Part shown: positions 1 to 10,050 of the stretch, piece by piece
How the letters are laid out: each line of letters starts with the position of its first letter
Position numbering within the stretch: the first letter of the stretch is position 1
From: a virus
DNA length: 64,000 nucleotides
Virus record (IMG/VR): IMGVR_UViG_3300037483_000453
Coordinates: 32,001-96,000 of that record
Reading direction: 5' to 3' (one strand)
Notes under the pieces: generated by a model
The model's input: the letters and a program-made list of their open reading frames with translations, nothing else
Database searches by the model: none
What the model was told of the DNA's origin: nothing
Translations under genes and position numbers: made by a program

Positions 1-279
1 ATTCCGGCGTTTGTAGAACTGAGCGAGGCTTAGGCTGTGGTATTCCTCGGGGGATACGGCAACGTAGTGGGTATTACTGTGTAGGTTGCTACAGTGCCCA
101 CACTGCTGGCACCACCACCACCCTGTGTCGGACTCCCATTCCAGCTTATCTATGGGTGCCTGGCATATACCCAGAGTGTCACTGGCCCACAGAGGGCTCA
201 TCATACTACTGGGCCTGCCTTGGCCGGCTCTCCAAGGTTCTGTTTGCACTAGATACTGCACGTTGGTTGCGCTGCCCAT
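1..279 (-). CDS. Hypothetical protein with Cys motif, truncated by the window edge
   Basis: Hand-translated, not in the ORF track. AGGAGG RBS, ATG at 279, open to base 1: MGSATNVQ...GWWWCQQCGHCSNLH... Confidence 0.65.
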   Translation of the reverse strand, partial: MGSATNVQYLVQTEPWRAGQGRPSSMMSPLWASDTLGICQAPIDKLEWESDTGWWWCQQCGHCSNLHSNTHYVAVSPEEYHSLSLAQFYKRRN

Positions 280-300: not shown

Positions 301-504
301 TCAGGGTAGTGCTTGCCTACGTATTAGTTCTCGTAGGCTCTCATCGTCGGCTGTTTCGTGCTCATTGAGCAGGACGCCGAGCTTGCTCGCCAAGGATAGG
401 AGCTCCTGACGGCTCATGGCCGTCAGAGATGCCTCATCCATGACGATGACATCGTCAGCTTTAGGAAGTTCGCACCCTGGCCAGAGTGCTACCCGGCTTT
501 TCCC
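301..504 (-). other. -1 frame extension of 489..1379 (candidate programmed frameshift product, HeH/Rho-N-like helical tail)
   Basis: Slippery G GGA AAA at 504-498. The -1 frame is open from just after a TGA at 522-520 to TGA at 303-301. Its internal ATGs (441, 420) lack an RBS. Confidence 0.6.
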
Positions 505-1379
505 GGTGACACCGTAGCCTCAAACAATGACTCTGGCTCACCGGCCAGGCTGTTCTTGACTGCCAGTGCAGCCAAGGATTGCTTGTCGACTCCCAGCTGG
601 TTGGAGGTGAGCTCAAGCACTAGAAGCATCAGCATATTCTGTGTGCGTGCCATGCCCAGGGCGATACTCTTGAGTTCGTTGACCTGTGCCAGCAGGCTTG
701 GCTGCCCCTGGCCTGCGTTACCGGGGTCTCCACTGGTCTGGGGTGCCCGAGTCATCTGTGGCGCAGGGGGAGCGTACTGCTGCTGCGGGGGGGCGATTTG
801 CGGGGCAGGTGGGGCAGCCTGGGGCATCGGGGGTGCATATTGAGGCGGTGCCTGCGGAACCCCTTGTGGGATGGGCTGCTGCGCATACTGAGGCGGGTGC
901 TGGAAGCTGGCCTGTGTGTACTGTCGTGGGTCAACAGCTTGCGGGGCAACAGCTTGCTGAGCGTACTGAGGCGCTGGTGGCAGCCCCTGTGCAGCCTGGG
1001 GAGGCGGCGGTGCATGCTGCTGGGGTTGTGGAGCATACTGCTGGGGCTGAGGTGCGTAGGCCATCGGTTGCGGGCTCACAGCTGCGGTTGTCGGGATGTG
1101 GGGGGCTTGTGGTGGCAAGGCCATTGCGGGCTGTTGAGGAGCAGCCTGGGGAGGCGGTGCGTGCCCTGTTTGCGAACCGTTATCACGCAGCTGAAGGGCA
1201 GTTTGCAGTGCATGTACCTGCGTGGCGTCGTCAGCAGCAATGAATGCCTTCTCTTCATCGGACTCATTCGGAAATAGAGCCATGGCAAGGGCGAGATTGT
1301 ATCGCTTGGGGCGAGTGAGGATCTGCAGGCCTGCAGCGTCGCGTGGTGCATTTTCTGGAGTGACTAGAGGTAGGTTCAT
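489..1379 (-). CDS. Hypothetical protein with long Pro/Gln/Ala-rich low-complexity linker
   Basis: 296-aa ORF in a tightly packed leftward operon. Ordered-looking N- and C-termini flank PQA repeats. Confidence 0.85.
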   Translation of the reverse strand: MNLPLVTPENAPRDAAGLQILTRPKRYNLALAMALFPNESDEEKAFIAADDATQVHALQTALQLRDNGSQTGHAPPPQAAPQQPAMALPPQAPHIPTTAAVSPQPMAYAPQPQQYAPQPQQHAPPPPQAAQGLPPAPQYAQQAVAPQAVDPRQYTQASFQHPPQYAQQPIPQGVPQAPPQYAPPMPQAAPPAPQIAPPQQQYAPPAPQMTRAPQTSGDPGNAGQGQPSLLAQVNELKSIALGMARTQNMLMLLVLELTSNQLGVDKQSLAALAVKNSLAGEPESLFEATVSPGKAG

Positions 1380-1382
1380 GCT

Positions 1383-1715
1383 TTATTTCCTGTGCAGTTG
1401 TATGAGGTGCTCATTCTTGGGGTTTCCCACTACACACGACACAACCTGGGTGTCAAGGCACGTGAAGCAGGCTTTAGGATCTTGGGTTCTTAGTGGGCAG
1501 GACACCTGGTTTTGGAGTACCGCCCAGTGACTGAGTACGAAGCCAGCTAATCCATGTCGCCATGAGTCAAAGACATTTGATGAGGCGTCTGGCGTGGGTT
1601 CTTCAATCATGAGTGCTGCAAGTTGGTCCCGCGTCATTGATGGGGTAGCTGGCAGGTTTAACTCACGGCATATCTGATATAGCTCTGTGTGGTTGCAACT
1701 GTTGAATATCGACAT
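1383..1715 (-). CDS. Hypothetical protein, HeH/Rho-N-like N-terminus plus Cys-rich C-terminus
   Basis: ELYQICRELNL...TRDQLAALM helical pattern; CP...CFTC...C cluster. Confidence 0.75.
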   Translation of the reverse strand: MSIFNSCNHTELYQICRELNLPATPSMTRDQLAALMIEEPTPDASSNVFDSWRHGLAGFVLSHWAVLQNQVSCPLRTQDPKACFTCLDTQVVSCVVGNPKNEHLIQLHRK

Positions 1716-6042: not shown

Positions 6043-9000
6043 CTATTTGGCCTCAGCCCATGAGCGCCCAATGCTACCTGAGACAGCTAGAGGAACAGCT
6101 AGATCGAAGGGGAACGGGTGCTCCATCCACTCCCTAATCTCAGCATCAGCTGCCTTAGCGCATTCAGCAGGTATCTCATGCATCAGTTCGTCATGGACCT
6201 GTAGGCAGGCATAAGCTCCAAAGCGCCTGTCAATGCCGGACTTGTGCAAAAGTACTTGTGCCATCTTTACGACGTCGGCAGCTGACCCCTGAATTTGGGT
6301 ATTCCCAGTGATGTAGACCTTGCCCTGTCGACGCGCTACGAAGAATGTACTGGGCAGGACAGGGCACCAGACCGCACAAGCTGTATTCATCTTGGTGATG
6401 TGCTTTTTCTGAACTTGTACTTTGTCTCGTCTAAGCAGAGTCGCGTAGTAGCACCCGGACGACTTCGGGACGTTCTTCATCTTCTTGGACTTGGGTTTGT
6501 ACTTCCTCATGTCACGGTACTTGCTTGTGGTCGCGTGGCCAGCTAGCGCCGCAAGTATCTGGAACATGCCCGCCGTTGTCTCACTCTTGCAGCAAAACGT
6601 TTGCAGGTTTTGTTGCATGTATAGCGATCCGTCACCGAGCAGCATGGACTCAAGTACTGCTTTTGCACCGCCTCTATTCAAGGACGTCATGAATGCTGGA
6701 GTGAGCTCCCGCTTCGGGAACAAACGAACCAACTTGTCTGCGTACCTCCCAATGAAGTACCAGTACACACATTTTGCACAGTTGACAGAGCGCGAGGTGC
6801 GTATGCCAAGTCGAGCAAGTAGGTTATCGATACGCTTCACGTTTGCTGGGTTTGCTCTCTTGCTTTGGCACAAGCCCACGCGTTGGCTGTGTGTAGGCTT
6901 TTGCTTCTTGCAGATGAACCCATCCGTAAGAAACCAGCCCACTAGCTCCAGGAAATCGAGGTCCTGTTTTCGTCCGCCTTGGTATGTGCCAGTGCGGAAG
7001 ATTCGGTGGTCACCATTTGTAGAGATGGTGTTTGTTCGCTTCTCCTCTGCTTTGCACGTCGTTCTGTTGTAGACCGCCCAACGATGGTCTGGCGTGGTCA
7101 GCGCACTGAACGTTTTGCTCTCGATGGAGACGATTGGCCCAGCATACTCGGGGAATAGCTTTATGTCTGTTGGGTACTCCCATTGCAGTGTTCCTTTCAC
7201 CATATCGAACGCCAGCAGCTTGTCTTTTCTTGTAACAGTATCACCGTGTAACCATCCGCGTGTGGTCAGCGCTTCCGTCTCCATGTCAACGCAGTTAGTT
7301 GCGATGCGCTCACCCTTCATACGTTCATCACGGCGGTAGCTTGCGATCTCCGGTACATTGCGTCGGCGGCCGAGGATAGTGAACGCGTACCCAGTCTGCT
7401 CAGTTTCAGCGACCGCTTCTCTGGTGAACGCGTCGACAGCCGGATAAGCCTTTTTGAACTGCTTGATCTTAGCTTCTGCTTCAGCGCGCGTGATGCCTAG
7501 CCGACTAGCCAGTTTGTCAGGGCCCATGCCGTAGATGATGCCAAAGCCTATATCCTTGGAGGCTGCACGTGCTGCCAGGCACTCACGCTGACGCGCAGTG
7601 TGCTGGTCCTCTGGTGTTTTTTTGGCGGCCTTGATTTCTTCATAGGGCATTCCAAAGATCATGGAGGCGTTGCCCATGTGGATGTCCCAGCCCTTGTTGA
7701 TGACCTCAATCATTCCGGGTTCACCGGACGCAGCGGCTAATAGGCGCATCTCCAACTGTTCATAGTCGATCACACTCAGCCGGTTACCTTCATCAGCTAT
7801 GAAAGCCCCACGTAGCCCCCACTTATCATTTTCGGGTTTCGGTATATTTTGGCAATTTGGATCGCTGCTAGATAAGCGGCCAGTATTGTGCGTCACGATG
7901 CCGCCTGTTACGTGCGACTCGTCCTCATCGATTGTGAGGCCATAGGTAACCCTGTCGTACTCATACTGAATCTCGGTTATGAACGACGTACCAAAGATGG
8001 CCGTGGGCTCTCTACTGAGGTCCCTGTCCCATCTGCGCTTGGCCCAGATGTCCCGAATGGCAGCTTCACTAACGCCGTACTTCTCAGACAACTCGGAAGC
8101 GGAGACACCACTGACCGGCTTAGTCCAAGTCAAGTCCTTCACAATGTTATCGATAGCTTGAAAAGAGACCTGGTATGTACGGGCAAGCTCAGCACGTCCC
8201 GTGCTGCCCAATGCATACTTCTCACGGATTATTTGGGCGACATCGTACGTGAGTTTGGAGGTACTGCTCGGCGGCTGACCACGGCGCTCAACTGCAAGAA
8301 TCTCTTGGACCTGCTCCTTGGTTAGCTTCGGAGCCCCGTTGAGCGTGCCGTGTGCACGTGAGTCAGCCGTGTTGTCCTTAGAGCTACCATACACCAAGTT
8401 GTCCACGGTGTTGTCCCAGGCAATCCCGTTCTTGTGCCTGACCTCTTTGCCAGCCTCTGGGTCGGGAAGGAAGGCACGGGCAACTAGAGCATGAACCCCA
8501 TAGCTCTTTCGAGATGGACCGGTAAGCGTCACTTTCAGGTGACCCCATTTATCCTTCTTTTGAAGAGCTAGAAGGGCGCCCGTGGCTTTCTTACGGACTC
8601 GGCCCCAAGAGGACACTTCATAGTTAGCGTGTTTTGGTACTTCCCTCCACGTCTCTGGGCTAGAGTGGGTGAACAGTACATTTCCTATTTTTAGCTCGTT
8701 AGCAGGGACCCAACCCTGACTGTGCAGAAACCTAGTAAGGTAGGGATGATGTCCATTTGTCCTGAGCTGCAACCCGTTTTCCAGAGTGATTTTAAGTATT
8801 GGAGTCGGCTTGTGCTTCGAGGTCTCAACTACACGGCGCTTCCGGCCGGTGTGTGTGATGACAAGATCGTTGACTCGGACCTCTTCCACTGGGAGGTAAC
8901 CGCGCGAGGTAAGAACGAGCTCGCCGGCTGGGAGACAGCGGGCTACGTCTTGGTTAAACCGTGTGTGAATACGCCCATAGGGGTCAACACGATCACGTAG

Positions 9001-10002
9001 CCCTACGATGTATGTGCCATGCAGCTTGGATAACCCACGGTGGCGCAGGAGCATCTTAGCCATGGGGATCTGGTCCGAATAGTGCTGTAGAAATGACTCA
9101 TCCACAGATGGATTACGCACCCCCGTGGCCCCACCTTTCGACATCTTCCTGGGCGTTACCTGCAGCTTGTCGAAGAAGTACTCACGAAGCTGCTTGGTGC
9201 TCTTGGGGTTTATGACCTTGCCAGCCTCTTTACAGATGGCACGCTCGAGTTCCTCGATTTCCGCGATAGCAGTGGGAGCAATGGACTCCAGATAACCTAA
9301 ATCCACCCGGACACCACGGCGCTCGGTGGCCCAGAGAGCTGAGGTATACGGCACTTCCACTCTGTCAAAGAGGTCCCACAAGGTCTGAATGTTCAATGGG
9401 TGGTCACGGAAGAGGCTATGGGTAGGGGCTCGTTGTAGCTGCGTTCGGAGCTCCTGGTAGATCTGTAGGGTGCCCCACGCATCATTGGCCGCGTACTCAC
9501 ATAGAAGTGGGAAGTTGTTCGCCTCTGCTGTACGGATGAGGTCTGTGGGACTAAAAGCCTTGGTGATCTTCCCGAACGTGTCTTGAAAATCCTGCCACTT
9601 CCAGCCGAACAGGTGCTGGTTCATGTCCTTCAGGCGGTGTGACTGCTCCTCATAGAGGAGGGCGTGCTGCACCTGGGTGTCCACCAACTTGCCTGCTATC
9701 TGCGAGTTGACGTTGGCTAGGATGTGCTTGTCATATTTGGCGTTGGCAAAGAGCCACCTCTTGCTAGGGTCCGCGAATGCCTCAGCAAAATGATGGAGGA
9801 CGGACACGTTGAGTGTCATGCGCCGGGTGCCCCATGCGAGAGACCAGTACAGGGGAACGTCCTTCCAGACAACTAGACCCGTAGTCTCAGTGTCAATGGC
9901 CACCTCGGGGGTTGCTATCACCTCTCGTATGACGGCATCGAGTCCTGGAGAGTTATGGTCGTAGTACTCAGTCGTGGGTGCTTCGATATTCCACTGGGTC
10001 AT
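6043..10002 (-). CDS. polA: Family A DNA polymerase with 3'-5' exonuclease and two inteins (about 637 aa after splicing)
   Basis: ExoI AIDTETTG; motif A IDYEQLEMR; motif B RAASKDIGFGIIYG; motif C LQVHDEL. Start moved to the ATG at 10002 behind AGGAG. Confidence 0.95.
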   Translation of the reverse strand: MTQWNIEAPTTEYYDHNSPGLDAVIREVIATPEVAIDTETTGLVVWKDVPLYWSLAWGTRRMTLNVSVLHHFAEAFADPSKRWLFANAKYDKHILANVNSQIAGKLVDTQVQHALLYEEQSHRLKDMNQHLFGWKWQDFQDTFGKITKAFSPTDLIRTAEANNFPLLCEYAANDAWGTLQIYQELRTQLQRAPTHSLFRDHPLNIQTLWDLFDRVEVPYTSALWATERRGVRVDLGYLESIAPTAIAEIEELERAICKEAGKVINPKSTKQLREYFFDKLQVTPRKMSKGGATGVRNPSVDESFLQHYSDQIPMAKMLLRHRGLSKLHGTYIVGLRDRVDPYGRIHTRFNQDVARCLPAGELVLTSRGYLPVEEVRVNDLVITHTGRKRRVVETSKHKPTPILKITLENGLQLRTNGHHPYLTRFLHSQGWVPANELKIGNVLFTHSSPETWREVPKHANYEVSSWGRVRKKATGALLALQKKDKWGHLKVTLTGPSRKSYGVHALVARAFLPDPEAGKEVRHKNGIAWDNTVDNLVYGSSKDNTADSRAHGTLNGAPKLTKEQVQEILAVERRGQPPSSTSKLTYDVAQIIREKYALGSTGRAELARTYQVSFQAIDNIVKDLTWTKPVSGVSASELSEKYGVSEAAIRDIWAKRRWDRDLSREPTAIFGTSFITEIQYEYDRVTYGLTIDEDESHVTGGIVTHNTGRLSSSDPNCQNIPKPENDKWGLRGAFIADEGNRLSVIDYEQLEMRLLAAASGEPGMIEVINKGWDIHMGNASMIFGMPYEEIKAAKKTPEDQHTARQRECLAARAASKDIGFGIIYGMGPDKLASRLGITRAEAEAKIKQFKKAYPAVDAFTREAVAETEQTGYAFTILGRRRNVPEIASYRRDERMKGERIATNCVDMETEALTTRGWLHGDTVTRKDKLLAFDMVKGTLQWEYPTDIKLFPEYAGPIVSIESKTFSALTTPDHRWAVYNRTTCKAEEKRTNTISTNGDHRIFRTGTYQGGRKQDLDFLELVGWFLTDGFICKKQKPTHSQRVGLCQSKRANPANVKRIDNLLARLGIRTSRSVNCAKCVYWYFIGRYADKLVRLFPKRELTPAFMTSLNRGGAKAVLESMLLGDGSLYMQQNLQTFCCKSETTAGMFQILAALAGHATTSKYRDMRKYKPKSKKMKNVPKSSGCYYATLLRRDKVQVQKKHITKMNTACAVWCPVLPSTFFVARRQGKVYITGNTQIQGSAADVVKMAQVLLHKSGIDRRFGAYACLQVHDELMHEIPAECAKAADAEIREWMEHPFPFDLAVPLAVSGSIGRSWAEAK
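6301..7293 (-). mobile_element. PolA intein 2 (331 aa, LAGLIDADG endonuclease)
   Basis: RIATN/CVDMETEAL...VYITGN/TQIQGSAAD restores the PolA motif; LVGWFLTDG and MLLGDG. Confidence 0.92.
7885..8937 (-). mobile_element. PolA intein 1 (351 aa, NUMOD4 + HNH endonuclease + HTH repeats)
   Basis: QDVAR/CLPAGELV...IVTHN/TGRLSSSDPN; ETWREVP...YEVSSWGRVR; VHALVARAF...RHKNGIAWDNTVDNL. Confidence 0.93.
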
Positions 10003-10018
10003 GGGGCTCCTAAAGCAA

Positions 10019-10050
10019 CAAGGCGGGTCCACCGGAGTGGACCCGCCTTG
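10019..10050 (-). terminator. Intrinsic terminator/attenuator between the SSB-like gene and polA
   Basis: 13-bp stem CAAGGCGGGTCCA / TGGACCCGCCTTG followed on the minus strand by TTGCTTT, then the polA RBS. Confidence 0.75.

Follow-up and report, generated by a model that had tools for sequence, protein, structure and literature searches.

A candidate programmed −1 ribosomal frameshift at the end of a replication and recombination operon in an uncultured phage

Nearly all annotated frameshifts of phages belong to tail chaperone genes. Among the 2476 joined genes of the SEA-PHAGES set on which PRFect was trained, 2397 are tail assembly chaperones (PMC10885494). The locus described here raises the question of whether a non-structural gene (489..1379, minus strand), whose slip site recurs in no fewer than 27 diverged lineages, is decoded into two proteins through programmed −1 ribosomal frameshifting, and what two isoforms would do outside the tail genes. 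The DNA analysed, referred to below as the window, is a stretch of 64,000 nucleotides (bases 32001-96000 of a 184.9 kb IMG/VR virus record) from an uncultured phage; coordinates are those of the window unless they stand beside the label of a related locus (L003, L015 and so on). Judged from comparison of the sequences, the gene very probably does make two proteins in this way, with a probability of roughly 0.88.

The slip site and its surroundings in the window

The gene encodes a protein of 296 amino acids, the short isoform, which is predicted to consist of an N-terminal HeH-like domain, a Pro/Gln-rich disordered linker and a C-terminal helical domain and which ends in SPGKAG. The 3′ end of its open reading frame reads CCG GGA AAA GCC GGG TAG and contains the heptamer G_GGA_AAA (498..504, minus strand) in the X_XXY_YYZ phase, two sense codons ahead of the 0-frame stop TAG (489..491, minus strand). 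An 8-nt spacer (490..497, minus strand) lies between the heptamer and a hairpin (472..489, minus strand) of 7 base pairs, including one G-U pair, and a 4-nt loop, in which 489-483 pairs with 478-472. The −1 frame opens 15 nt (5 codons) upstream of the heptamer and ends at TGA 303-301. Counted from the codons for GK it is 67 codons long (304..504, minus strand) and contributes 65 new residues, so that a slip at the heptamer would produce a long isoform of 294 + 65 = 359 amino acids.

The most conserved motif of the extension, WPGC followed by xLPxxxD[VL], is located at 448..483 (minus strand), and its W, P and G are nearly invariant in the alignments. The only canonical start codon in the −1 frame of the window is ATG 441, which lies 13 codons past the W and therefore downstream of the WPGC motif, and which is not accompanied by a Shine-Dalgarno sequence. 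Re-reading of the minus strand bore out the positions that a first-pass annotation of this DNA had assigned to the ORF, heptamer, spacer, hairpin and −1 frame (down to 301), as well as its remark that no start codon with a ribosome-binding site serves that frame.

The arrangement was then considered against the rest of the window. As a plain word, GGGAAAA is not enriched there (7 occurrences compared to 5.0 expected). An in-phase XXXYYYZ heptamer within the last 6 codons was found in two of the 66 open frames of at least 150 codons, and ORF 489..1379 is the only one among these 66 in which a slip heptamer is followed by a −1 frame that stays open for at least 50 codons. Such an arrangement is uncommon within the window, yet it is not decisive alone. 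No genes for tRNA-Lys or tRNA-Gly are encoded by the phage within the window.

Conservation of the heptamer and the extension among diverged relatives

Neither a comparison of the DNA of the region with 50,697 phage records nor an IMG/VR single-protein search with the Pro/Gln-rich protein returned a match. Eighteen syntenic IMG/VR loci were reached through the neighbouring exonuclease-like protein, and further loci were obtained from IMG/VR and JGI metagenomes through the motif of the extension (WPGCVLP pattern). A profile of the frameshift protein retrieved 16 database proteins, and their contigs were fetched where DNA was available. In total, the site could be read in 29 lineages, represented by contigs from IMG/VR, JGI, ENA and Logan, with near-identical contigs counted once. 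The homologous proteins are only 17-38% identical to the protein of the window and carry many indels. Since the lineages share ancestry, the lineage counts reported below are not independent events.

It is the comparison with these relatives that decides the case. An in-phase canonical heptamer is present in 27 of the 29 lineages (25 with G_GGA_AAA, one with G_GGA_AAC and one with G_GGG_GGA), and in those 27 the phase is always the one that permits tandem re-pairing. When the sequences are aligned on the heptamer, its columns carry 1.72 bits of information each, compared to 0.27 for the columns upstream and 0.42 for those downstream. The 0-frame stop, too, is a conserved feature, falling 0-2 codons past the heptamer in 25 of 28 lineages, and 13 further homologues that are known as proteins only all end in GK plus 0-2 residues. 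In L037 (1483-1500), two consecutive 0-frame TAG stops stand behind the heptamer.

L003 (9033-9218; the same as L039 and L040) has G_AAG_AAA in place of a canonical heptamer, and L038 (953-1216) reads GGA GAA AAC at this position; both keep the extension, so another route of expression exists at least there, which may be near-cognate slippage or independent initiation. Going by these two lineages, a canonical heptamer is not strictly required. In L021 (8044-8202) the 0 frame runs for 48 codons past an in-phase G_GGA_AAA through a non-conserved, Trp/Cys-rich sequence, and its −1 frame encodes the conserved HeH-like tail without the WPG motif. This arrangement hints that the shifted product would be the one that matters in that lineage.

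The extension is found in the −1 frame in every lineage that was read. Its common pattern is GK, then 5-10 variable residues, W-P-G-[CSTA], usually x-L-P-x-x-x-D-[VL], and a helical region that includes a LAxxLG[VL] helix. Third-codon positions of the −1 frame vary most, and the dN/dS values of the extension lie between 0.13 and 0.45, with 0.27 for the window against L036 and 0.36 against L030, its two closest relatives. The extension is thus under purifying selection across many lineages. The −1 frame opens just 15-18 nt ahead of the heptamer in the window, L004 and L008. A much shorter extension, of 25 residues (WPGARWP and then DDF) and without the HeH-like module, was seen in L019 (10648-10725) and L035 (2002-2079).

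Collectively, many lineages display the signal in phase, together with the open frame and the purifying selection upon it. The first-pass annotation had proposed a −1 frameshift that gives rise to two isoforms, and the retention of heptamer, phase and open −1 frame at homologous loci supports that proposal. The same cannot be said of the hairpin, which it had described as part of the signal together with the heptamer.

The hairpin of the window is the minimum free energy structure and has a stability of −8.1 kcal/mol alone. Nevertheless, the 71-nt hairpin region is not significantly more structured than shuffled sequences (z −1.74), and the downstream region of the window is ordinary compared to the local background (z −0.42). 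When 17 loci were taken together, the stretches of 50 nt that begin 3 nt past the heptamer proved on average to be more stable than their surroundings (mean z −1.05, with 15 of the 17 values negative). Most loci can form a downstream hairpin, and its position and shape differ. A short hairpin 4-8 nt downstream occurs in the window, L008 and L004, and a long stem 13-21 nt downstream, which pairs the W-P-G codons with the P-R-A codons, occurs in L002, L009 and L015. The window hairpin is unchanged in L030. In L036, the closest relative, a U-to-A change that turns a Cys codon into Ser breaks it without compensation. No covariation supporting the hairpin was detected, and no stimulator common to the lineages was identified. 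The window hairpin was therefore rejected as a conserved stimulator for lack of conservation; being weak and unconserved, it is a candidate stimulator at most, and the conserved nearby stop may matter more.

Competing explanations and the proposed mechanism

Conceivably, no frameshift is involved and the distal frame forms a small gene of its own, read either from ATG 441 (which would give 46 aa) or by termination and reinitiation after the TAG. The ATG is indeed present in the window, some ATG, GTG or TTG precedes the W in 7 of 28 lineages, L038 combines a TTG directly before the W with the lack of a canonical heptamer, and ORFs of 48-81 aa are listed for this region in protein databases. However, ATG 441 has no Shine-Dalgarno sequence and is missing in L030, and WPGC and xLPxxxD, the most conserved part of the extension and under purifying selection, lie upstream of it. 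In the remaining 21 of the 28 lineages, the −1 frame contains no ATG, GTG or TTG at all ahead of the W. Reinitiation, furthermore, would not need a phase-locked X_XXY_YYZ heptamer. The database ORFs were traced through a profile search of public protein sets with the extension, which returned many proteins of 48-81 aa that start at a Met, Val or Leu just before WPG. Three of them (MWPGC.., VWPGC.. and VGVWPG..) were inspected on DNA, and each is in the −1 frame behind an in-phase heptamer, the upstream gene being Pro/Gln-rich and ending in an in-phase G_GGA_AAA or G_GGA_AAC. Read on their DNA, these three apparently independent ORFs are the extension miscalled, with a chance Met or Val before the W used as the start. 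Thus an independent distal gene with its own start, which the first-pass annotation had counted as evidence against recoding, did not materialize among them, as all three apparent cases lie behind an in-phase heptamer. Other short ORFs, which start with M-S, M-K or M-T, we infer to be readings of the −1 frame where TGA directly follows the heptamer. An ATGA overlap could allow coupled reinitiation in such lineages, and both routes may coexist there; this type of overlap start is absent from the window and from most lineages. As the sole explanation of the locus, a separate small gene is very unlikely.

Two further explanations place the change of frame outside the ribosome. RNA polymerase might slip on the A-run of GGGAAAA and add one A, after which the edited mRNA would be translated normally into the long protein. 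One added base would give the observed frame, and the A-run is conserved. Yet the run consists of just four A, and the transcriptional slippage known from bacteria and phages, a process reviewed in PMC5009743, uses far longer runs. Conservation is as high for the three G as for the A, and the X_XXY_YYZ phase that is held among the lineages is relevant to tRNA re-pairing and not to slippage of the polymerase. Moreover, G_GGG_GGA and G_GGA_AAC are valid sites for tRNA slippage and contain no run of four A. This explanation is therefore judged to be highly improbable. Lastly, there might be no recoding, the two frames being either a single long gene split by an assembly or sequencing indel or the decaying remnant of a real frameshift mutation. 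Single-base indels in homopolymers are common errors, and the arrangement, had it been seen in a single sequence, would be only mildly unusual. Against this, the same −1 arrangement recurs in 29 lineages from independent samples and assemblers, and the extension is under purifying selection, which in practice leaves no room for an assembly error or a decaying gene. An in-frame version did not turn up either: a profile search of 1.84 billion representative proteins returned no extension fused in frame, and neither did a "longer" search of 5.8 billion. The chance that an error or a decaying gene underlies the locus is consequently put close to nil.

A programmed −1 ribosomal frameshift thus accounts best for the locus, and we infer the slip itself, together with any stimulator, from the sequences compared. 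Most ribosomes would stop at TAG 491-489 and release the 296-aa protein. A fraction of the ribosomes would slip back by one base at 504-498, where tRNA-Gly on GGA would re-pair with GGG and tRNA-Lys on AAA would re-pair with AAA. With a stop directly behind the heptamer, slippage may involve only the tRNA-Lys in the P site, which would move from AAA to the AAA that overlaps it, an event that a slow A site could favour. The shifted ribosomes would read on to 301 and yield the 359-aa protein, which would carry the WPGC-type motif and a second HeH-like module. Judged by lambda G/GT, where the site is nearly identical, the shift probably has an efficiency of a few per cent. In E. coli, a site in which Z is A (AAA) is less shifty than AAG, which counts against the slip. 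The related heptamer G_GGA_AAG is highly shift-prone in E. coli, and a stop codon close to a shift site can affect shifting, as described for a plant virus whose site requires a stop codon 3 nt downstream (PMC5009743).

Genomic context, predicted architecture and known systems

The frameshift gene closes a long minus-strand operon, of which it is the last conserved member. The order of the genes is SNF2/ResIII helicase, DnaB-like helicase, DnaG-like primase, family A DNA polymerase, HU-like protein, RecA-like protein, exonuclease-like protein, a 207-aa protein, RusA, a 110-aa protein and the frameshift gene. The term "early protein", which the first-pass annotation had applied to the product, is unsupported. 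The polymerase (6043-10032, minus strand) is 1329 aa long and has internal matches to a 3′-5′ exonuclease, an HNH endonuclease and intein-splicing domains. A strong AGGAGG ribosome-binding site precedes the next gene downstream (1-279, minus strand), which contains a C-x-x-C-x-x-C motif and whose ORF leaves the window.

The upstream neighbour (1383..1715, minus strand; 110 aa) has an N-terminus weakly similar to Rho_N (E 0.022) and a C-terminal region with four Cys, its end displaying a conserved C-x-x-C ... C cluster. In the relatives, this gene is always found between RusA and the frameshift gene. In L015 (6806-8198) and L021 (6746-8195), the HeH/four-Cys gene and the frameshift gene share an open frame that no stop interrupts, a possible natural fusion; this shared frame suggests that the neighbour and the frameshift protein work together.

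A tail chaperone was also considered as a candidate and was rejected on gene context, as the neighbours are PolA, primase, DnaB-like helicase, HU, RecA-like, exonuclease-like and RusA genes. The frameshift gene does not lie between genes for a major tail protein and a tape measure protein, and no Pfam or PHROG family, including those of known chaperones, was matched by the protein, the extension or 15 homologues.

The AlphaFold2 model of the protein was computed from a 15-sequence alignment, and the extension was modelled alone with 14 sequences. The N-terminal domain (residues about 10-68; 1176..1352, minus strand) is predicted as four helices with pLDDT >90 and includes a PRD motif and a HeH-like LAxxLGxL helix. 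It is followed by a Pro/Gln-rich low-complexity linker (residues about 70-225; 705..1172, minus strand), modelled without secondary structure at pLDDT about 50-60 and variable in length among relatives, and by a C-terminal helical domain (510..698, minus strand; helices 228-262, 266-278 and 283-290), the model of which is moderately confident and has no specific fold match. The extension is modelled with helices in its last 45 residues, which form a HeH-like three-helix module (extension residues 22-67; 304..441, minus strand; pLDDT 82.5). The 359-aa isoform would accordingly carry a HeH-like module at both ends of the Pro/Gln-rich linker.

Compared exhaustively with known structures, the N-domain model came closest to the Rho N-terminal domain 1a62 (Z 6.5, rmsd 2.0 over 48 residues), followed by LEM, SAP and the Ku70 C-terminus, and 1a62 is also the best match of the extension model (Z 4.8, rmsd 2.0 over 43 residues), for which Rho-N, SAP and LEM are the top matches at Z 4.0-4.8; values of 4.8 and 6.5 are modest, and small helical motifs can match by arrangement alone in that range. 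Pfam Rho_N (PF07498) gave no sequence hit for the extension or the N-domain, and two of 14 related short ORFs reached E values of 0.013 and 0.17 with Rho_N, below the cut-off. Given the modest Z values and the failure to reach Pfam Rho_N by sequence, the modules are named HeH-like and are not assigned to Rho_N. The "HeH/Rho-N-like" tail of the first-pass annotation is supported at the level of the predicted fold (1a62), with these modest Z values, and falls short at the level of a Pfam sequence match. A Foldseek search of the PDB with the full model returned nothing below E 6, a feature search of the ESM Atlas with the N-domain gave no usable hit, and PDB sequence profiles gave nothing meaningful for the N-domain or the extension. 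An origin of the two modules by internal duplication was considered and is unsupported, as profile-profile comparison of the N-domain with the extension found only the LAxxLG helix in common, with a probability of 3.9%.

Compared to known systems, the mechanism is of a known kind. Lambda G/GT is the closest parallel, with G_GGA_AAG near the end of G and a product ratio of 30:1 (PMC5009743). The two loci share nearly the same heptamer, located within a few codons of the stop that ends the upstream frame, and the G-T frameshift of long-tailed phages, like the signal described here, has been retained among phages whose proteins show very low similarity (PMC5009743). In both, a −1 shift adds a C-terminal domain to the minority product, as predicted here and established in lambda. 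The differences lie in the last base of the heptamer (A here and G in lambda), in the location of lambda G/GT between the tail tube and tape measure genes as opposed to a replication and recombination operon after PolA, RecA-like, RusA and HeH/Cys genes, and in the added part, which is a HeH-like module by its model here and the tail-tube-binding T domain in lambda.

The dnaX gene (tau/gamma, A_AAA_AAG) is likewise associated with replication and makes two isoforms in a set ratio that differ in C-terminal binding modules; unlike the gene described here, its shift truncates the product instead of extending it, and it relies on two stimulators, a strong Shine-Dalgarno-like element upstream and a hairpin downstream, whereas none that is conserved was found here. 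T7 10A/10B and the capsid of Lactobacillus phage A2 resemble the present case in that a −1 shift near the end of the gene gives a C-terminally extended minor form. Those are virion proteins, in contrast to the product here, which is non-structural and, by its modelled fold, probably binds nucleic acid. With the HeH modules of the Rho N-terminus, SAP and LEM, both the N-domain and the tail share the modelled form of a small HeH-type helical module; the WPGC motif has no counterpart there, and the similarity to Pfam Rho_N stays below threshold. As far as the literature and databases searched show, the gene family and its placement in a replication and recombination operon appear to be new for phage frameshifting.

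What two isoforms would be used for can be suggested from fold resemblance and gene neighbourhood. The likely purpose is a fixed ratio of one-ended to two-ended forms of a nucleic-acid-binding or tethering factor that would serve the replication and recombination machinery. Such a pair would suit the tethering or bridging of nucleic acid, or the recruitment of a partner through the WPGC motif. A more specific and rather doubtful proposal is that the frameshift sets the stoichiometry of one-ended and two-ended forms of a HeH tether, with the long, disordered Pro/Gln-rich linker at its centre, in which the two-ended minority would cross-link DNA, or DNA and a WPGC-bound partner, and so shape a compartment or condensate for replication and recombination in a family of large environmental phages. 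If this were true, tether stoichiometry would be a non-structural counterpart of the principle of the lambda G/GT ratio. In any event, the predicted isoforms of this protein family are set apart by a single DNA-binding-like module, so that experiments can address what the family does.

The locus may also provide a clean comparative case on which frameshift predictors can be trained and tested, and it corrects the annotation of the 65-residue tail, which is at present either uncalled or called as a spurious gene of 48-81 aa. In seven of eight contigs, a stretch of about 100-240 nt after the gene is left uncalled, and in the eighth an ORF of 45 aa was called.
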